Below are positions 1 through 7,620 of a DNA stretch of 7,728 nucleotides, in pieces. The stretch's first letter is position 1; every line of letters starts with the position of its first letter. The stretch spans positions 1-7,728 of the IMG/VR virus record IMGVR_UViG_2529293042_000032, one strand, 5' to 3'. The notes under the pieces are model-generated. The model worked only from the letters and a program-made list of their open reading frames with translations, was not told where the DNA came from and made no database searches. Made by a program: the position numbers and the translations under genes. Source of the DNA: a virus (lineage: Duplodnaviria; Heunggongvirae; Uroviricota; Caudoviricetes).

Positions 1-168
1 TCAAGCATTATGCAGGCTGTTTCTTTTTATCACCGGCCACAGCAATACCACAATGCCGCAGACCAGCACCCCATCCGCCAGCACCGACATGATTCTGCTG
101 GTGAAATCCACCATCACCACCAGAAACAGCAGGAGTGCAGCCACAGCCAGGCGCAGTTTTACCGTCAC
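1..168 (-). CDS. Small hydrophobic protein, 55 aa, two predicted transmembrane segments, function unknown
   Basis: Minus ORF GTG(168-166) to TGA(3-1): MTVKLRLAVAALLLFLVVMVDFTSRIMSVLADGVLVCGIVVLLWPVIKRNSLHNA. GGAGA Shine-Dalgarno 7 nt upstream. GTG overlaps the upstream TerB-like stop in a GTGA junction. Below the length cutoff of the ORF track. Window edge coincides with its stop codon. Confidence 0.55.
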   Translation of the reverse strand: MTVKLRLAVAALLLFLVVMVDFTSRIMSVLADGVLVCGIVVLLWPVIKRNSLHNA

Positions 169-596
169 AGGTGATTCTCCAGACGAAGACCCAGAACACC
201 GGCAATCTCTTCCAGCACCTTGCGCTCTTCCGGCTCAATTTCGCCGTCTGCCTCCGCAATGGCCACCGCCACATCCAGCACATCTTCCGCTTCACGCGTA
301 TCGTGTTTCACATCCTCAATCTCACGTAACGCCGCACGACGACCAGTTTTAAAGTTCGTATCCAGCTGACCGATAATGGTTGCGCTAATCGCATTAATTT
401 CTGACGTAAACGCGTACAGCGCAGGCTGATTACGCAGTACCTGTTCGATCTTCGCTTTCTCGGATGCCTCACATTCACCATCTGCACAGGCCACCAGGTA
501 TGCGGCGTTAATCACCACCTGTGCCAGATCGCGTTTTTCAAACTTTTTAATTTCCGTTGCCGCTCTGCGGGCTTTTTTACCAAAAATACCAAACAT
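165..596 (-). CDS. TerB-domain (tellurite-resistance TerB-like) protein, 143 aa
   Basis: ATG 596-594 with AGGA SD upstream, stop TGA 167-165. Two ADGE-x-E repeats (ACADGECEASEKAKIE and AEADGEIEPEERKVLEEI) typical of the TerB fold. The 215-aa version in the ORF track would read through the tRNA genes and is rejected. Confidence 0.8.
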   Translation of the reverse strand: MFGIFGKKARRAATEIKKFEKRDLAQVVINAAYLVACADGECEASEKAKIEQVLRNQPALYAFTSEINAISATIIGQLDTNFKTGRRAALREIEDVKHDTREAEDVLDVAVAIAEADGEIEPEERKVLEEIAGVLGLRLENHL

Positions 597-725
597 CGTG
601 ACGTTCCTTTGGGTGGGTGAGCCAACGCCCGGGAGCGATCTGCCCACAGAGAAAGTCACACTGACCACTCCGTAAGCTCCCCCCGAAAGGCTCTGTGGTT
701 GGTATGCGCCGGGCGTGGTGCGGAT

Positions 726-750
726 ACAAAAAAGGTCCGCCGAAGCGAGC
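726..750 (-). terminator. Candidate intrinsic terminator after the tRNA cluster
   Basis: Minus-strand RNA stem GCUCGC/GCGGAC (one mismatch, one G-U) with UUCG tetraloop followed by U6 (plus-strand A728-A733), 15 nt past the tRNA-Arg 3' end. Confidence 0.35.
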
Positions 751-764
751 GTGGAAAATAAGTG

Positions 765-840
765 TGGTGCGTTGTAGTGGGTCGAACCAGTGACCGATTG
801 CTTAGAAGGCAATTGCTCTGTCCGGCTGAGCTAACAACGC
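765..840 (-). tRNA. tRNA-Arg (anticodon UCU), T-arm non-canonical as read
   Basis: 76 nt manual cloverleaf: acceptor GCGTTGT/ACAACGC, D-stem GCTC/GAGC, anticodon stem ATTGC/GCAAT with loop CUUCUAA, CCA encoded. T-loop reads TTCGAC (6 nt, one short) in a CCC run. Confidence 0.65.
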
Positions 841-853
841 AGAATACCGATAA

Positions 854-929
854 TGGACCGCCATCGGGGACTCGCCCCCGCGCAACCAGCTTGTTATGGT
901 GTCGTTCTCTCCTGATGAGCTAATGGCGG
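854..929 (-). tRNA. tRNA-like sequence, degenerate (possible pseudo-tRNA)
   Basis: 76 nt lying between the two clear tRNAs. Perfect 7-bp acceptor stem CCGCCAT/ATGGCGG, T8-A9, GCTC D-stem start, encoded CCA. No convincing anticodon stem-loop; T-arm stem CGGGG/CCCCG with loop GCGAGT lacks TTC. Confidence 0.3.
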
Positions 930-936
930 TTTGTGA

Positions 937-1012
937 TGGTGGCCCTTGCTGGATTTGAACCAGCGGCCTGGCGATTATGAGTCGCTCGCTCTCACCACTG
1001 AGCTAAAGGGCC
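937..1012 (-). tRNA. tRNA with anticodon CAU (Ile2 lysidine-type likely; Met not excluded)
   Basis: 76 nt canonical cloverleaf: acceptor GGCCCTT/AAGGGCC, D-arm GCTC-AGTGGTGA-GAGC, anticodon loop CUCAUAA, T-arm GCTGG-TTCAAAT-CCAGC, CCA encoded. Resembles enterobacterial ileX-type tRNA from memory. Confidence 0.75.
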
Positions 1013-1021
1013 GGGAGCAGA

Positions 1022-1050
1022 ATAATAACGGTCCGTAATTAATTCCGCAA
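1022..1050 (-). promoter_or_regulatory. Candidate sigma70 promoter for the tRNA cluster
   Basis: Minus strand TTGCGG-N17-TATTAT ending about 10 nt upstream of the tRNA 5' end. The -35 is weak and overlaps the upstream terminator U-tract. Confidence 0.25.
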
Positions 1051-1074
1051 TAAAAAACCCGCTCAATGGCGGGT
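1049..1074 (-). terminator. Intrinsic terminator downstream of the Q-like gene (tR'-like)
   Basis: Minus-strand RNA hairpin ACCCGC-CAUUGA-GCGGGU followed by UUUUUAUU, about 80 nt after the Q-like stop codon. Confidence 0.6.
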
Positions 1075-1151
1075 TCTGGTAAAGTTCATGCGTTTGGTTC
1101 GCCTCGCGATACAGCTTTGCGAAGCTTACCGGAATTGAAGCAGTTTTTACG

Positions 1152-1718
1152 TCAAAAAGCAATAACTTTTTTCTCTATACCAAAAGCCATAACCATTGGT
1201 TTGTACAAAATAAATTCTGCCACCTTTAGCCAATGCTCAATGCGTCTTTCACAGGTTCTTAAACTCCATTCCGGATGTGCATCATTCAGCAATTCAGCCA
1301 TTTTGCGCTTAGTCATCCCCCGCCCCACATAACGCTGACTCAGAACATTGAGCAGCCCGGGATAACCTGCCAGTACTTCACCAATAACCCTATCGATTAT
1401 TAACGCCTCTGAATCGGTACAATGTGCCAGCCAGCTTTTTTGATTGCCGTTGATCATATCCCGCAAAAAAGCCTCAAGTTCAGGTTTGTCCAGACCCGCT
1501 TTTTTCATCCTCCGGAGCGCCTCGTTAATTGCCGTTTTTGTCAGCTTTTTAGAGGTCAGTAATTGGTTGAACATATTTCCCGTCTTACCGTCGCCAATAT
1601 ACGACCAACGCCCCCACATACGCAGTTTCCCCTGGATCCAGACACTTTCCAGCGTTTTCAGGCGTAAATGCTCACCGCTTTTGCCTGTAATTTCCGGGTA
1701 TATCATATTTATGCTCAC
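1152..1718 (-). CDS. Putative late-gene antiterminator Q-like protein, 188 aa
   Basis: GTG 1718-1716 (alternative ATG 1706-1704) to TGA 1154-1152. Sits directly after rusA and directly before a strong terminator and the tRNA cluster, the canonical Q slot. Assignment by synteny, not by search. Confidence 0.5.
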   Translation of the reverse strand: MSINMIYPEITGKSGEHLRLKTLESVWIQGKLRMWGRWSYIGDGKTGNMFNQLLTSKKLTKTAINEALRRMKKAGLDKPELEAFLRDMINGNQKSWLAHCTDSEALIIDRVIGEVLAGYPGLLNVLSQRYVGRGMTKRKMAELLNDAHPEWSLRTCERRIEHWLKVAEFILYKPMVMAFGIEKKVIAF

Positions 1719-2073
1719 TCACTTTCAATTTTGTAAATCTTCACGCCCAGCCGCCCACCAGAAACGAGCTAGCCGCGCACAATATTGATTTCATCAAACT
1801 GCTCGTCGTCTATGGGAAGTCCGGCATGCGTCAGCGCATCCAGTGGTGCTTTCAGGATATTGTCCAGGTCACGACGGCGCTTATCCGGTGGCTCTGCAAT
1901 AATCTTTATCGCCAGCCTTCCGGACAGGTTAATTTCAGCCGCTGCTGGCGAACAATAAGTGCCACATCCCGGCGATAACGCTCACCGGCTTTTGATACAA
2001 AATATGTGCTGCCACGACGTCGCCAGTAGGTGTTCACCGTCGGCGGGTAAGGCAAAACAAACTCTATACGCAT
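1715..2073 (-). pseudogene. rusA: RusA-like Holliday junction resolvase, disrupted by a frameshift and an in-frame TAG
   Basis: ATG 2073-2071 (GAGG SD) reads MRIEFVLPYPPTVNTYWRRRGSTYFVSKAGERYRRDVALIVRQQRLKLT then hits TAA 1908-1906. The RusA motif continues in another frame (GRLAIKIIAEPPDKRRRDLDNILKAPLDALTHAGLPIDDEQFDEINIVRG), meets TAG 1771-1769, then LVSGGRLGVKIYKIESE to TGA 1717-1715. Span is 359 nt, not a multiple of 3. Confidence 0.65.
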
Positions 2074-2085
2074 CAGTAACCTCTT

Positions 2086-3190
2086 TTACCCGAGCACGCC
2101 GGTTGCAAAGGCGTGATCAAGAAAACGAAAAATTAAATCAACCTGGGAACCATGCTTTTCTTCGAACGCCAGCGGATCCGCATGAAGCTCGTTGTGATGC
2201 TCCCGACACAGCGGTAGCGTGAAAATATCGTGGGATTTTGTTCCCATTCCGCCCTGACCATGACCAATCAGATGATGAGGATCGTCCGCTGGCCTTACCA
2301 CAACACGCACACGGCTGTGTCTTTACCCAGCGTGTGTATTTCTCATTTACCCAGCGGCGACGTTTAGGTCGTTTCATGAAGGATTCCGGAGACTCCGGAT
2401 CAACGGCAATGCTGACCACCGTCTTTTCCTGTGGTGGGTTCTGTTGCTGGTGGGTGTGAGGCGGTAGCGCAATATTTTTTGTGCGCTGCTTCAGTATGCT
2501 GGTGGCGGTCTGTTCTCCCGGTATGATGTCGCTTTCACGGTATACGGAGCGGATTTTTTCCGCCGGTAATCCCAGAGAGCGACGCGATACTGCCTCAGGT
2601 AATGCGTCCACCACCTGATTGCAGACTGCCCACCAGGATAATTCAGCCAGCGATAATTCCCGCTCCTGCGTGCCATTCATTACATGGCGTATGACGTCAA
2701 TCATCCAGGCTGTCAGATTTTGTTGAGTAAGTTGCTCAAGTGATTCGGAGGTCTGGTCGCGCAGCTGGTTGTCGCAGTGCCAGCACAACACCATTGCGCC
2801 AGCACCGTAACTGTGAATAACGGTTTCGCTGTGATGATAATCGCCGTGTGGCCACTGGCAGGATTTCACGTGACGTAATAACCAGTCAGACAGTGCACCA
2901 GCGCCGCCAGCTGCACGAATCACCCGCTCATCGCTGAAAAATGGCAGCAGTGATTTATCTTCCGCCAGCGGCTGGCGAACAGCAGGAACCGCTCCAGATG
3001 GCAGCGCCCGCATGTTTTTCGGTTCCGGCTCCACCAGCACCCTGCCGCGATGAAAAACTGGCAATGATTCACGACCGGGCTTAAGGACCACCAGCCCGAG
3101 TTCCGGAACCAGAACAGGTCGAAGTAATACCCGCACATTACCTCCAGACGCGCTGACGGTAGCAGGCATGTGTCCGTGGCAGATGTGCAC
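2086..3190 (-). pseudogene. YdfU/DUF968-like Cys/His-rich protein, apparently frameshifted in its C-terminal domain
   Basis: Long frame (GTG 3190 or ATG 3169) carries MKRPKRRRWVNEKYTRWVKTQPCACCGKA then low-complexity sequence to 2138. The conserved continuation DDPHHLIGHGQGGMGTKSHDIFTLPLCREHHNELHADPLAFEEKHG is in the +1 frame, ending TAA 2088-2086. Switch near 2290-2296 (GGCC run). Layout resembles E. coli Qin YdfU (about 350 aa) from memory. Confidence 0.45.
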
Positions 3191-3410
3191 GAACAGGAAG
3201 ATATACAGAAACGGTCCAGGTCAGACGATCAGCGTTCAGACTCCGCTCCACACGGACACCGCGACGCAGATACGCCTCTTGAAGCATATCTGCCTCATCG
3301 ATCGTACAGAACAGATAGTGAAACCAGCCATACTGAGGCGCACGAAAACGCCTCCCCTGCTTAATTTCCGGGTCGGCTTCAGAATTGTGGGATTTTATGT
3401 GTTGTGTCAT
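3138..3410 (-). CDS. Hypothetical protein, 90 aa
   Basis: ATG 3410-3408 with GGAG SD 6 nt upstream. Starts MTQHIKSHNSEADPEIKQGRRFRAPQYGWFHYLFCTIDEADMLQEAYLRRGVRVERSLNADRL. The last 30 residues look low-complexity. Overlaps the start of the next ORF. Confidence 0.4.
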   Translation of the reverse strand: MTQHIKSHNSEADPEIKQGRRFRAPQYGWFHYLFCTIDEADMLQEAYLRRGVRVERSLNADRLTWTVSVYLPVRAHLPRTHACYRQRVWR

Positions 3411-3459
3411 CGGATTCTCCGGTGACAGCAGGTGTCAGTTGTTCAGGCTGACTGCGCGA

Positions 3460-3488
3460 ATTGTAAGGCAATACGCCGGAATGTACAA
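3460..3488 (-). promoter_or_regulatory. Candidate sigma70 promoter (TTGTAC-N17-TACAAT) for the nin-like/Q operon
   Basis: Minus strand -35 TTGTAC (3488-3483) and -10 TACAAT (3465-3460) with 17-nt spacer, between the upstream terminator and the 3410 start. Confidence 0.3.
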
Positions 3489-3514
3489 ACAGAAAACCCG
3501 TCAGTAAGACGGGC
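3486..3514 (-). terminator. Intrinsic terminator after the YgiW-like gene
   Basis: Minus-strand RNA CCCGUC-UUACU-GACGGG followed by UUUUCUGUUUG, 18 nt past the stop at 3534-3532. Confidence 0.55.
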
Positions 3515-3531
3515 TTAACAAGCAGGGGCGG

Positions 3532-3876
3532 TTACTTTAATAATTTCAGTGCCTTTACATCAACTTCAACACTGCTCAGGTCTTTATCAATTTCACCCTC
3601 AATTCTTACTTTGTCTTTCGGAGAAACATTCTGACCGGCCCATATGCTGTCATCGATATCCGTGACAATTGTCCCGCTATTGTCACGAAACTCATAACGT
3701 TCATCACCCACTTTTTTAACGATGCTCCCTTCAAGGATAACCCATGCATCATCCTTCAGTTCTTTTGCCTGCGCTACTGTTGAACGCTCTGCTTCAGGCC
3801 CTTGGAAACCGCCCTGCTGTGCAAAAGCGCCAAAAGACACACCAGAAATAAGTGCTGCAATCAATACCTTTTTCAT
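3532..3876 (-). CDS. YgiW/YdeI (BOF) family OB-fold periplasmic protein with signal peptide, 114 aa
   Basis: ATG 3876-3874 with AGAGGA SD. N-terminal signal MKKVLIAALISGVSFGAFA. Family pattern QGGF.GP...STV.QAK.L.DD..V.L.G.IV.K..D..Y.F.D..G.I..DIDD..W present. Confidence 0.8.
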   Translation of the reverse strand: MKKVLIAALISGVSFGAFAQQGGFQGPEAERSTVAQAKELKDDAWVILEGSIVKKVGDERYEFRDNSGTIVTDIDDSIWAGQNVSPKDKVRIEGEIDKDLSSVEVDVKALKLLK

Positions 3877-3995
3877 TCATAGTCCTCTTTCAGAGATGAA
3901 CATTCAAACAGCATTTTCAGTATGGTAAAGCGCGGGTGCGTTGAGGATGCCTGACACATCAGAGGTGGCGGGAGATTACTCCCCCGCTTGGTCTC

Positions 3996-4151
3996 TTACT
4001 TCTCAGATTCGTAGTCTACGAAGACAGCGACCTCCGTCTGACCGGTTCGGATTCGCACCTCGCAGAGGTCTTTCCTCGTTACCAGTGCCGTCACTATGAC
4101 GGTTAAACAGATGACGATCAGGGCGATTAACATCGCCTTTTGCTGCTTCAT
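3996..4151 (-). CDS. hok: Hok/Gef family membrane toxin, 51 aa
   Basis: MKQQKAMLIALIVICLTVIVTALVTRKDLCEVRIRTGQTEVAVFVDYESEK with AAGGAG SD. Single TM segment followed by LTRKxLCE[IV]R...EVA.F..YES signature. An in-frame upstream ATG at 4208 would give 70 aa. Confidence 0.8.
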   Translation of the reverse strand: MKQQKAMLIALIVICLTVIVTALVTRKDLCEVRIRTGQTEVAVFVDYESEK

Positions 4152-4441
4152 AGCCTGCTTCTCCTTGCCTTTCGGCACGTAAGAGGCTAACCTACATGTG
4201 TTCAGCATGGATTGAGCCTCAGATTAATGTTAAGCGTCTTGCCGGACGCGTAATGTTAACTGGGGCTTTTCTCTATCTGCCGTTGGTGTTCATGCCCGAG
4301 GCAGATAGCCTCAAGCACCCGCAGCAATTCTACTTAACTCTCCTTTTCCCGCAAACCGTTTTTATCTCCAGCGACAAATCGAATACACAACCAGCACCAC
4401 CGCCATTACTGTTCCTACATTTGCGAATGCTTCAGGCCAGG

Positions 4442-4837
4442 TCATTGATTCACCTTCTGCTCAATATTTTTAAGGTCATTTTCCGCATACAGTATTGCAG
4501 TTCTTGCTGCCCGCAACCGTGCTTTGGTGTTCTTTTCTTCACGCTCGAGGCTGGCAACAGATTCTCGGAGCTGATCGTGTCTGTTATGAAGCTGTCTAAT
4601 CTCTCTCACCACAGCCTCACCATCGTTCGCACACCGCAGAACATACTGAAAAGGGTCCACAACACATCCGCACTGCAAGCACAGGATAACGTGATCCTGT
4701 TCATGAACCTCAATGGCCCGATGCTTACAGCTCTGTTGTGTGTAGTTTTTTCTGCCAGTTACTGTAATGTTCAGCAGCTTCTCTTCATCGCGCTTTGGCT
4801 GCACCAGTGTGATGATATTATCGCCTTCATTTTCCAT
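4442..4837 (-). CDS. Cys-rich zinc-ribbon-like protein with C-terminal coiled coil, 131 aa, function unknown
   Basis: ATG 4837-4835 with AGGAGG SD 7 nt upstream; start shares one base with the upstream TGA (TGATG). Cys cluster SCKH..ILCLQCGC..RCAN then heptad-like C-terminus. The 156-aa version in the track lacks an SD and overlaps the upstream gene. Confidence 0.55.
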   Translation of the reverse strand: MENEGDNIITLVQPKRDEEKLLNITVTGRKNYTQQSCKHRAIEVHEQDHVILCLQCGCVVDPFQYVLRCANDGEAVVREIRQLHNRHDQLRESVASLEREEKNTKARLRAARTAILYAENDLKNIEQKVNQ

Positions 4838-5736
4838 CAGTTCACCTCCTGCGGCGGTTCTGGTAGCGGCATCCAGTGTGACGGTTTCCACGACGCACCA
4901 GGAATTATCCACCCATCATTAGCGTCAGGATGCCCCGGGATGTAAGTCGCCCACTTCATTCGCCAGTCACCTTTCCTGTCAAACTCCACGGCAACAAGAA
5001 CGGCTGTTTTGGTATCCGGCATTCGCTCACTACAACTTATCCAACCATCCGGAGTTACCGGAGAGTTGCCAGACAGCGCATTCTGCAACCGTTCCAGCTT
5101 AACGTATTCCTGAACCCTGTTTCCGTCGCACGCCTGAAGCCATTGCTCAGCCTTTTGCGCATCAGTGTGAAAGGCACAAGTGCGACCGTCATCAAATTGC
5201 ATTTCGTAGAGGTTAGCAATCTGTTCAAACTGCGTGTGTGGCAACTTGTAAGTTTGGCTTACGAGTTCGGCTTCCAGTTCTGCTATGCGCTTCTCTGATG
5301 CTTCAAGTAACGCCTGCTTATCGCGTAGCGCTTCTTCCAGTTCAGCAACATGGCATTCACTATCAATAAGGTTGTTCTCTGCTGCTCCCAGCTCAACTCT
5401 CAGCTTCCCAACCGTAAGCGCAATCTCCTCGTTCTCCTGGTCGCGGCGTTTGATGTATTGCTGGTTTCTTTCCTGTTCATCCAGCAGTGCCAGCACGGTA
5501 GCCGGGTTAGCCTCTGCTATGAATTCAGCGTTTGCATAAGCCTGATCATCTGATTCAATCAGGCAGTTAACATGACATTCCGCAATCACGCCACCGGGTT
5601 CTCCTTTCCATTTTTGGCAAACAAAAACTCCTGTTAAATTGCCGTGCTGGTTAACAGATGTATGCCCTACGATGTAGCTTCCTTTAGTTGCTTTCTCTGC
5701 CTTTTCACGCAGTGCCTGATAATTAATTTCGCTCAC
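4837..5736 (-). CDS. Ea22-like N-terminal domain / DUF551-like C-terminal domain protein, 299 aa
   Basis: GTG 5736-5734 (AGAGAGG SD) overlapping the TraR stop in a GTGA junction. N-terminus MSEINYQALREKAEKATKGSY...NPATVLALLDE, central coiled coil, C-terminus DGWISCSERMPD...VLVAV...WMPLPEPP. Assigned from memory. Confidence 0.65.
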   Translation of the reverse strand: MSEINYQALREKAEKATKGSYIVGHTSVNQHGNLTGVFVCQKWKGEPGGVIAECHVNCLIESDDQAYANAEFIAEANPATVLALLDEQERNQQYIKRRDQENEEIALTVGKLRVELGAAENNLIDSECHVAELEEALRDKQALLEASEKRIAELEAELVSQTYKLPHTQFEQIANLYEMQFDDGRTCAFHTDAQKAEQWLQACDGNRVQEYVKLERLQNALSGNSPVTPDGWISCSERMPDTKTAVLVAVEFDRKGDWRMKWATYIPGHPDANDGWIIPGASWKPSHWMPLPEPPQEVN

Positions 5737-6001: not shown

Positions 6002-6631
6002 TTAGAATTCGAATTGCCTTGCCCGCAGGCTTTTCAGCATTGGTCTGGCCCGCTGAACTACGAAACTCGACTGGTCAAGCCGTGCCGCCTCTCTCAGTAG
6101 CACATCTCTGTTCTTCGTCACCATGTAGATGGTCTCAAACGCAATGTCATACAGCTTGTTCGTGTATGAGGAGTTCAGCTCTTTCATGATCGGATACAGG
6201 TGTTTGCTGAGGTCCTGGGCTTTTTCCATCCAGAGTTGCATGTAGCAGAGGAGGATGATTTCCTCGTCTGTGAATTGTTGCTGTGGTTCTGCTTGTGCCG
6301 ACTGCATGTTGCGAAGTTTCTTTTCGCACTCGATGAAGTATCTGCGTATCTGTCGGCCTTTTTCGTTACGCTCTACCATCGCCGTTTCTTTGGCTGTATC
6401 GAGGGTAAGGTGGTAGTCTTTTTTCCCTCGCCCATAACCTATTTCCCGTTTCTGGGAAATAGCTATATAGTCCTGATTTTCAACGAATCCGTACTCTTCA
6501 ATACGTTCTGTAATCCACGATGCAAAGCGTTTACCTACTCCAAGAAAAGTATGTAAATCACGGGCATTAACGAGAAGAGTGGTTTCGTTGGCGATAGTGC
6601 CGTTGAATACGGGGATGCGTTGACTGGTCAT
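6002..6631 (-). CDS. AntA/AntB-type phage antirepressor-like protein, 209 aa
   Basis: ATG 6631-6629 with AGGAGG SD 6 nt upstream. N-terminal LLVNARDLHTFLGVGKRFASWITERIEEYGFVENQDYI and HLTLDTAKETAMVERNEKGRQIRRYFIECEKKL match the AntA-type antirepressor N-domain as I recall it. Confidence 0.65.
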   Translation of the reverse strand: MTSQRIPVFNGTIANETTLLVNARDLHTFLGVGKRFASWITERIEEYGFVENQDYIAISQKREIGYGRGKKDYHLTLDTAKETAMVERNEKGRQIRRYFIECEKKLRNMQSAQAEPQQQFTDEEIILLCYMQLWMEKAQDLSKHLYPIMKELNSSYTNKLYDIAFETIYMVTKNRDVLLREAARLDQSSFVVQRARPMLKSLRARQFEF

Positions 6632-6659
6632 GATGACCTCCTTATTTGTTTAGTTTATA

Positions 6660-6682
6660 ACCGCCAGTTAGTAGCTGGCGGT
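6660..6682. repeat. Perfect 8-bp inverted repeat (ACCGCCAG-N7-CTGGCGGT) 10 nt upstream of the antA SD
   Basis: Read directly: arms 6660-6667 and 6675-6682, loop TTAGTAG. Confidence 0.6.
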
Positions 6683-6849
6683 CGGGTGTCAACTGAGCCA
6701 AATAAGAAGCTCTGGGCATATTCCCCTTGCGGGTGTTGTATTACGCCTCTCCACCCGACCTTTGTACGGATGTAACTATGCCAAATTGCAGGCATAAAAA
6801 AGCCGCAAAGCTATCGGGTGCGGAGACCGCTTATTTGTTCAGTGCGGTC

Positions 6850-6879
6850 AGTATGCGATAGCTCTGGAGGATTTGTCAA
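6850..6879 (-). promoter_or_regulatory. Candidate sigma70 promoter with consensus -35 (TTGACA-N18-CATACT) for the antA transcript
   Basis: Minus strand TTGACA at 6879-6874, CATACT at 6855-6850. Would give a leader of about 210 nt that contains the 6660-6682 palindrome. Confidence 0.3.
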
Positions 6880-6926
6880 TCAGCGGAATATTGATGAACG
6901 GGTAACGGTAAATGCCTCATCCAGAA

Positions 6927-6963
6927 AATTAACGCAAATTCGCATCGCAAACTTGCGTTAATT
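6927..6963. promoter_or_regulatory. Perfect 11-bp inverted repeat AATTAACGCAA-N15-TTGCGTTAATT, operator-like
   Basis: Read directly: arms 6927-6937 and 6953-6963. A third ACGCAA-like half-site (TCGCAAA) lies in the spacer. Confidence 0.45.
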
Positions 6964-6994
6964 ATCTGAAATATCAAGTTAAATCCCCTTAAAT

Positions 6995-7080
6995 GTTTGG
7001 GGCACTATTGGGGCAAAATGTGGTTGTTTGGGGCACTATTGGGGCAAAATGTGGTTGTTTGGGGCATATTTGGGGCAAAA
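6995..7080. repeat. Tandem direct repeat, 31-bp unit x about 2.8, giving six TTGGGGCA motifs
   Basis: Units 6995-7025 and 7026-7056 are identical (GTTTGGGGCACTATTGGGGCAAAATGTGGTT); a variant partial unit runs 7057-7080. Motif starts at 6997, 7008, 7028, 7039, 7059, 7070 (spacing alternates 11 and 20 bp). AAAGAACG x2 follows at 7080-7098. Confidence 0.75.
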
Positions 7081-7186
7081 AAGAACGTATAAAGAACGGT
7101 GTAAAATTGATTTCTTCATGGTCAAAATGAGGTGTAACAGATTGAAAAATATATGCTCTTGGACGATCTTCGGTAATTCTGTGTTT

Positions 7187-7249
7187 TTAATGCTTCATGG
7201 TTTCAATATGTCCGTACATGGAATAATAAAGCACCAGAACTTTAGCCAT
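7187..7249 (-). pseudogene. wrbA: 5' fragment of host wrbA (codons 1-18) truncated by prophage insertion
   Basis: Minus ATG 7249-7247 encodes MAKVLVLYYSMYGHIETM, matching the WrbA N-terminus from memory, then diverges into KH-stop (TAA 7189-7187). Confidence 0.7.
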
Positions 7250-7620
7250 TTCTAACCACTCCTCGTGTTATCTCTATTCCGTAGCGATTCGCTACCACTT
7301 ATTTAAAGATAAGACGTCCTTTTCAGAGTGCAAATTTCACAACCACTTATTTGATTTATAACAACTTTCACAAGCACGCAATTTTGTCGCAAAATGACAC
7401 ATTTTTATCTCATCGCGTTTTTTTAATCATAAGAGCGGCTTATGGATAATTATTGGAGATGATATCTATTCTCGCTAAGAAGCTGTTGCAGGATATTACC
7501 AAACGCGGGTAGAAACACGTCAGTTCACTAAGCTTAGTCCCACGTAGCGAAAATATGGCAGCCGCCATACGCCGCGTTAATTCTAGCAATATGATGTCTA
7601 TACCCAGACGGAGGTCAGTA

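Follow-up and report, generated by a model that had tools for sequence, protein, structure and literature searches.

The 7,728-nucleotide stretch of viral DNA analysed here, hereinafter the window, contains an attachment arm of the Stx2 phage 933W. Judged from its sequence, window 6632-7206 is the int-distal arm of the 933W attP (the arm called P in lambda), present here as attR at the wrbA junction. The six TTGGGGCA repeats of this arm are most likely arm-type sites that the 933W integrase contacts through its N-terminal arm-binding domain. The analysis establishes the location of the repeats in an att arm, the occurrence of the motif on both arms, its conservation throughout the integrase family, and the domain architecture of Int. 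Int binding itself, the use of the pairs in each reaction, and the role of IHF are proposed by analogy.

Comparison with the att arms of wrbA-integrating phages, which the first-pass annotation of the window had suggested, identifies the region. Both 933W, at its right end, and several other Stx2 phages match window 6640-7200 with 100% identity, and the longer segment 3485-7206 aligns with the 933W right end at 99.8% identity. The annotated attR core, GTTTCAA, is the last 7 bp of the 933W record and falls at window 7200-7206. This core overlap falls within an attP/attB identity segment, CATGGTTTCAA(T)ATGTC, at 7196-7212 (no strand assigned). To the right of the core, wrbA retains its first 50-odd bases (minus strand; 5' remnant at 7207-7255, ATG at 7255), and ymdF follows, as in the Sakai Sp5 record. 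The wrbA start codon opens a 22-codon hybrid ORF (7187-7255, minus strand) that ends at a phage-supplied stop codon (7187-7189); because the hybrid ORF stops in phage DNA, the insertion disrupts wrbA.

The circularly permuted 933W-type record AP004402 has the order antirepressor-like gene, palindrome, repeat array, core, int (444 aa), and xis. Because this order puts int and xis directly across the core from the array, the array belongs to the int-distal arm. The first-pass annotation had noted the absence of an integrase or excisionase ORF from the interval separating the array from the first phage gene, which ends at 6631, and we confirm this; it had explained the absence either by the array being the integrase-distal arm or by a deletion of int and xis. 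The former explanation is supported by the gene order of circular 933W-type genomes. The latter is unnecessary: in the standard 933W prophage, int and xis lie ~61 kb from the array, at attL, and the lack of an integrase in the window is expected because both genes belong to the other prophage end.

This first phage gene is L0142 of 933W, an AntA/AntB-type antirepressor homologue (6002-6631, minus strand). Only circularisation of the phage makes it contiguous with the int transcript, and it is then the first gene encountered downstream of int past attP. A promoter-like site, TTGACA-18-CATACT, is present at 6850-6879 on the L0142 strand, and the L0142 leader (6672-6760, minus strand) matches the Rfam family sRNA-Xcc1 (RF02221) at 69.1 bits, above its gathering score of 53 (E about 1e-12). 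Further away, a sok antitoxin RNA (RF01794, 113 bits) occupies 4146-4320 on the minus strand and is part of the hokW/sokW module annotated in 933W.

TTGGGGCA occurs exactly six times in the whole window, always on the plus strand, at 6997, 7008, 7028, 7039, 7059, and 7070 (span 6997-7077). By chance 0.36 copies would be expected, and none of 200 shuffles gave six. The spacing is 11/20/11/20/11 bp, and TRF reports a 31-bp unit in 2.8 copies at 6994-7080, so the alternating spacing and 31-bp period described at first pass hold exactly. The tandem unit, TGTTTGGGGCACTATTGGGGCAAAATGTGGT (x2.8, 6994-7086, plus strand), carries the label 'arrangement g/gg, region III' in the GenBank entry AP004402; GenBank records call it merely a repeat. 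Identity is 100% between units 1 and 2 and falls to 71% for unit 3; the six motifs thus represent three copies of a two-site unit rather than six independent events. A search of Rfam with the array and the palindrome gave no match.

The whole array lies 123-203 bp from the attR core and divides into three putative arm-type site pairs on the plus strand. Pair 1 (6997 and 7008, 11 bp apart; 6997-7015) is 203-185 bp from the core, and the 31-bp unit that holds it is missing from the two-unit phages Sakai, phi315, and phi191 (alignment A1). Pair 2 (7028 and 7039; 7028-7046) is kept in Sakai, Min27, phi315, phi191, and Fels-1. Pair 3 (7059 and 7070; 7059-7077) is the core-proximal pair, 141-123 bp from the core. 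In alignment A1 the 31-bp unit is present in two copies in Sakai Sp5, phi315, and phi191, in three copies in 933W and the window, and in four copies in Min27. Two-unit and three-unit alleles both occur among complete E. coli genomes, and the two-unit phages stand in the records as complete phage genomes. The identity of units 1 and 2 indicates a recent duplication, so not all six sites need be in use.

The same motif is found on the other arm. In AP004402, the int-proximal arm carries TTGGGGCA and CTGGGGCA on one strand at a distance of 11 bp, located 64-82 bp past the core and inside the 3' end of int, and all eight 933W sites on the two arms have one orientation. GGG(G/A)CA pairs likewise stand on both arms in the relatives with readable arms, namely Fels-1, Rac, VT1-Sakai, and the IMG/VR contig L044, whose cores are different. 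Specifically, Fels-1 of Salmonella, with a core that differs from that of 933W, has two distal pairs (spacing 11/20/10) and one proximal pair. Rac of E. coli K-12, which is inserted in ttcA and has an Int 44% identical to 933W Int (alignment A2), has distal GGTGGCA/GGGGCA and GGGGCA/GGGGCA pairs and one proximal pair. VT1-Sakai, inserted in yehV, has three distal sites and one proximal pair, and L044, an intact metagenomic attP, has two pairs on one arm and one pair on the other. In the Yersinia phage YP3 the proximal pair is present and no distal array was found.

Arrays were also found in Rac and in IMG/VR loci whose arms otherwise defy alignment. Successive pairs are 31 bp apart in 933W, in Fels-1, and, as 12+19, in Rac; in L044 they are 41 bp apart. 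Because 31 or 41 bp corresponds to three or four helical turns, all sites would lie on the same face of the helix. The architecture of the array tracks the integrase family, not the insertion site.

When another 80 Int-family loci from IMG/VR were examined, 78 had the pattern GGG[GA]C[AG]-N4-5-GGG[GA]C[AG] at the int end; outside the int end it has no occurrence in the 648 kb scanned. The hexamers are constant among these int ends and the 5-nt spacer is variable. The proximal pair is translated as a variable C-terminal Int tail, xAPxxPQ, in 933W, Fels-1, VT1-Sakai, and YP3. In Rac, the pair lies beyond the intR stop codon and is non-coding, which shows that the proximal pair is not a coding artefact, and the xAPxxPQ tail looks like a by-product of the DNA sites. 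These observations relate to positions 3631-3649 of locus L001 and about 1475-1492 of locus L013. Because the pair overlaps the int 3' end in most relatives, coding constraint could add to its conservation, and Rac alone separates coding constraint from conservation of the sites.

The cognate integrase matches this layout in its domains. 933W Int has an N-terminal Arm-DNA-bind_2 domain (Pfam PF12167, E 6e-26) followed by the Phage_integrase catalytic domain, and 933W Xis, a DUF1233 protein (Pfam), is encoded together with int directly across the core in AP004402. 933W Int is a tyrosine integrase of the IntBPP-1/IntR subgroup and a carrier of Arm-DNA-bind_2; the integrase of a Stx2a phage has been assigned to the arm-binding IntBPP-1 subgroup (Smyshlyaev et al. 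2021). An AlphaFold model (mean pLDDT 77), computed for an N-terminal fragment of a 73%-identical homologue and not for 933W Int itself, predicts three β strands and a helix, followed by a helical domain. A sequence search of the PDB with Int returned only catalytic and core-binding domains of distant recombinases. In the literature covered, we found no description of arm sites for 933W, IntR, or PF12167 integrases, and no binding or footprint data for any member of the 933W Int family.

The repeats therefore have the attributes by which arm-type sites are recognised. They lie near the core, occur on both arms, follow the integrase family, and are accompanied by an Int with an N-terminal arm-binding domain; the core CATGGTTTCAA has no likeness to the TTGGGGCA motif. 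The first-pass suggestion of recombinase arm-type sites in an att arm is thus supported by the identity with 933W attR and by the same motif pair on the other arm.

Phased repeats in an att arm may also serve an excisionase. Lambda Xis and P2 Cox polymerise on phased direct repeats and bend the arm. RDF sites usually lie on the arm that becomes attR (X1, X1.5, and X2 in lambda) and are normally limited to one arm. The array, whose repeats are phased at about one helical turn on the arm becoming attR, might accordingly be a platform on which 933W Xis (DUF1233) polymerises to bend the arm, a reading that we consider unlikely. The same pair is present on the other arm of the relatives examined and at nearly all of the IMG/VR int ends described above, which argues against Xis. 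Evidence on both sides comes from Rac, for which excision and the binding of XisR to attR have been shown experimentally (PMC4632033). The 294-bp attR fragment bound by XisR includes the Rac array, as the Xis reading would have it. However, in the same EMSA experiments XisR shifts the fragment AttR and not the fragment AttM (Liu 2015, PMC4632033), and mapping of the published primers (PMC4632033) places the complete GGGGCA array in both fragments, with AttM extending to the core. A fragment that comprises the complete Rac array and all the DNA from there to the core thus goes unbound by XisR, and the excisionase alone does not recognise the array; the assay rules out XisR alone, not Int-assisted binding of Xis. 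Given the presence on both arms and the AttM result after primer mapping, Xis sites were rejected as an identity for TTGGGGCA. The first-pass proposal of Xis or IHF sites does not fit this motif, and an IHF-like site and a conserved box are found elsewhere in the arm.

The repeats could instead be mainly transcriptional operators, through which a phage regulator or Int would control L0142 or int read-through. The array is upstream of the antirepressor-like gene and the promoter-like site (6879-6850) is on the same strand; arm sites of KplE1 reportedly double as intS operators. This reading is very improbable as the main function, since the array is ~120 bp upstream of the promoter-like site, is kept beside unrelated downstream genes (dinI in VT1-Sakai, no gene in Rac), and has a pair on the other arm that operators leave unexplained. 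Operator activity is compatible with the arm-type reading, and the two do not exclude each other. A neutral, slippage-prone minisatellite with no sequence-specific function would account for the identity of units 1 and 2 and for a copy number of two, three, or four units among phages. It has only a slight chance of being correct, because 23 of 24 hexamer positions are the same between Fels-1 and the two-unit allele whereas the spacers are about half identical, and because arrays stand in Rac and in IMG/VR loci with otherwise unalignable arms, so that the motif is kept in independent lineages. The hexamers are kept while the spacers diverge across phages, and slippage alone does not account for such motifs. 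Replication-origin iterons, also raised at first pass, found no support: the repeat architecture suits them and nothing else does. There is no initiator gene nearby, the genes neighbouring the array are ant-like, TraR-like, Ead/Ea22-like, and hok/sok, and in relatives the array invariably accompanies int and att. With this gene context the iteron candidate was ruled out, and its probability is close to nil.

Apart from the putative arm-type sites, the arm contains three elements between the array and the core. Two copies of AAAGAACG, 11 bp apart (7080-7087 and 7091-7098, plus strand), stand right after the last arm site in a position that resembles lambda X1/X2; they had been reported at first pass together with an 11-bp perfect inverted repeat (6927-6937/6953-6963), and both features are there. 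Only the first AAAGAACG copy is kept in Fels-1, neither is present in L044 or VT1-Sakai, and the Rac equivalent lies in the non-binding AttM fragment; on these grounds the two copies are not assigned as Xis sites. A scan for the IHF consensus (at most one mismatch) gave a single match in the arm, TTTCAATCTGTTA at 7135-7147 (minus strand), which agrees with WATCAANNNNTTR at 12 of 13 positions and has an A/T-rich 5' flank; at a whole-window rate of 0.9 matches per kb, it is not significant alone. Rac attR has a near-identical IHF-like site, TTTCAATGTGTTA, at the equivalent distance from its core, and for this reason the site is retained as a candidate. The third element is a core-proximal box of ~40 bp at 7153-7192 (plus strand; ATGCTCTTGGACGATCTTCGG...TGTGTTTTTAATG, also written ATGCTCTTGGACGATCTTCGG...TTTTTAATG), which directly adjoins the core. 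The box (ATGCTCTTGGRCGWTYTT...TTTTTAA) is found beside different cores in Fels-1, VT1-Sakai, and the IMG/VR loci L044, L074, and L082. Because the cores are unlike, the box must be recognised by something shared, and it is a candidate site for Xis or a host factor.

A working model can be proposed from these elements. The six TTGGGGCA motifs would be three tandem pairs of Int arm sites, located on one face of the helix by the 11-bp distance within a pair and the 31-bp distance (three turns) between pairs. By analogy with lambda and L5, Int would be heterobivalent, with its N-terminal domain on the arm sites and its CB and catalytic domains on the core at 7200-7206. A bend made by a host protein, probably IHF at 7135-7147, together with the box at 7153-7192, would fold the arm back onto the core, and the distal arm sites and the P' pair would then build the intasome that controls integration and excision.

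The palindrome lies on the far side of the array from the core. The perfect 11-bp inverted repeat, AATTAACGCAA (6927-6937) and TTGCGTTAATT (6953-6963), widens to imperfect 22-nt arms (6922-6943 and 6947-6968) within a long inverted repeat at 6920-6970 (minus strand), a candidate terminator or RNase III (sib/tI-like) element or palindromic protein site. The minus-strand RNA is predicted to form a 23-bp stem of -27.9 kcal/mol (z -7.5), and the plus-strand RNA reaches -18.1 kcal/mol; the minus-strand fold is better because of G.U pairs. Both int and the antirepressor-like gene have the minus strand as their sense strand, and the hairpin is past att as seen from int, so it would join int transcripts only in the circular phage, as in the logic of lambda tI/sib. 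In phi315 and phi191 the palindrome has three substitutions, two of which make up a compensatory change from G-C to A-U. A conserved hairpin distal to the array was not found in the wider family: the palindrome is confined to the 933W lineage, and the other relatives examined have nothing comparable. In Rac, the place immediately distal to the GGGGCA array (locus L012, about 3236-3275) is taken by a hairpin of another kind, which resembles a terminator, has TTTTT after it on the int-sense strand, and may be a tI analogue.

The palindrome is probably not part of the intasome. Possibly, and only tentatively, it acts like lambda tI/sib as an int-sense RNA hairpin that ends or processes int transcripts reading through attP, as they can only once the phage is circular; alternatively, the palindrome may be a site for a protein. 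A broader proposal, which we put forward as a rather unlikely one, would make the att arm something beyond an inert support for the intasome and joins several of these elements: the number of pairs would tune integration and excision of Stx phages, the hairpin would be a sib-like position-dependent switch, and L0142 would be transcribed from the int/pL side only after circularisation. If this were true, expression of L0142 after circularisation would be a feed-forward step in induction, lost upon a prophage rearrangement like that in the window.

The window as a whole is a hybrid. Positions 1-3484 are not 933W; with genes for TerB, DUF1133, and DUF968, they represent the stretch from nin to the late region in another lambdoid prophage, and ~1.4 kb of YgiW-hok homology (3485-4878), which the two prophages share, connects them to the attR end of 933W. 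In strain 86-24, the two halves of the window are 510 kb apart and in opposite orientation, and the arrangement of the window was not found among the complete E. coli genomes in the collection. The hybrid is likely either a prophage-mediated inversion or an assembly chimera across the repeat. A genuine inversion would put attR in the opposite orientation to attL, and the Stx prophage would then be unable to excise as one piece. The first-pass annotation had held that the element would be unable to excise if int and xis had been deleted. Excision may still be compromised in this genome, for a different reason: the putative inversion at 3485 would bear out that concern in part.

The array is an ordinary and expected feature of a well-known phage, a standard part of a lambda-type site-specific recombination module, and nothing is missing from the window, since the place of int and xis is at the opposite end of the prophage. 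The concept of site-specific recombination is unchanged by the finding. What is modestly new is that the putative arm sites of the 933W/Rac/Fels-1 integrase subgroup are given an explicit consensus and architecture. For this widespread and biochemically uncharacterised subgroup (933W/Stx phages, Rac, Fels-1), the consensus of TGGGRCA pairs, 11 bp apart on both arms, is testable. It may help to define where prophages end and to make sense of the unequal stability of Stx phages from strain to strain.

The arm is reminiscent of the lambda P arm. Both are int-distal arms that become attR and carry short repeated sites unrelated to the core; in both systems the same motif recurs on the P' arm beside the int 3' end, and an IHF or IHF-like site stands between the arm sites and the core. 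As in lambda Int, the N-terminal domain of 933W Int is predicted to have three strands and one helix and is combined with core-binding and catalytic domains. Unlike lambda Int (PF09003), 933W Int belongs to the PF12167 subgroup, and, also unlike lambda, its putative sites have the TGGGRCA motif and form 11-bp pairs in one to four tandem copies, all eight sites being co-oriented. The lambda P1 and P2 sites lie nearer to the core than the 933W array does (123-203 bp). Paired use of arm-type sites has a precedent in mycobacteriophage L5, whose attP arm-type sites are reportedly used as adjacent pairs, P1/P2 and P4/P5. L5 thus has closely spaced arm-type pairs on both arms, as is predicted for 933W, whereas its integrase subgroup and host are unrelated and its pair numbers differ.

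Another close parallel is the IntR/XisR system of Rac, which has an Int and a Xis (DUF1233/YdaQ) homologous to those of 933W, GGGGCA pairs on both arms, and the IHF-like site at the same distance from the core. Rac differs from 933W in its target (ttcA instead of wrbA) and core, in the non-coding location of its proximal pair, in having the T-run terminator-like hairpin instead of the long palindrome, and in the lack of a recognisable core-proximal box. The 933W palindrome, in turn, resembles lambda tI/sib in its position past att from int, on the int-sense strand and linked to int only in the circular phage. Its 23-bp stem would be long enough for RNase III, as in sib, although it is a candidate only, and, as in tI/sib, a U-rich stretch follows the upper stem and the lower stem would form only on read-through. 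Unlike lambda tI/sib, the 933W palindrome is not conserved in other family members and has no clean U-tract.
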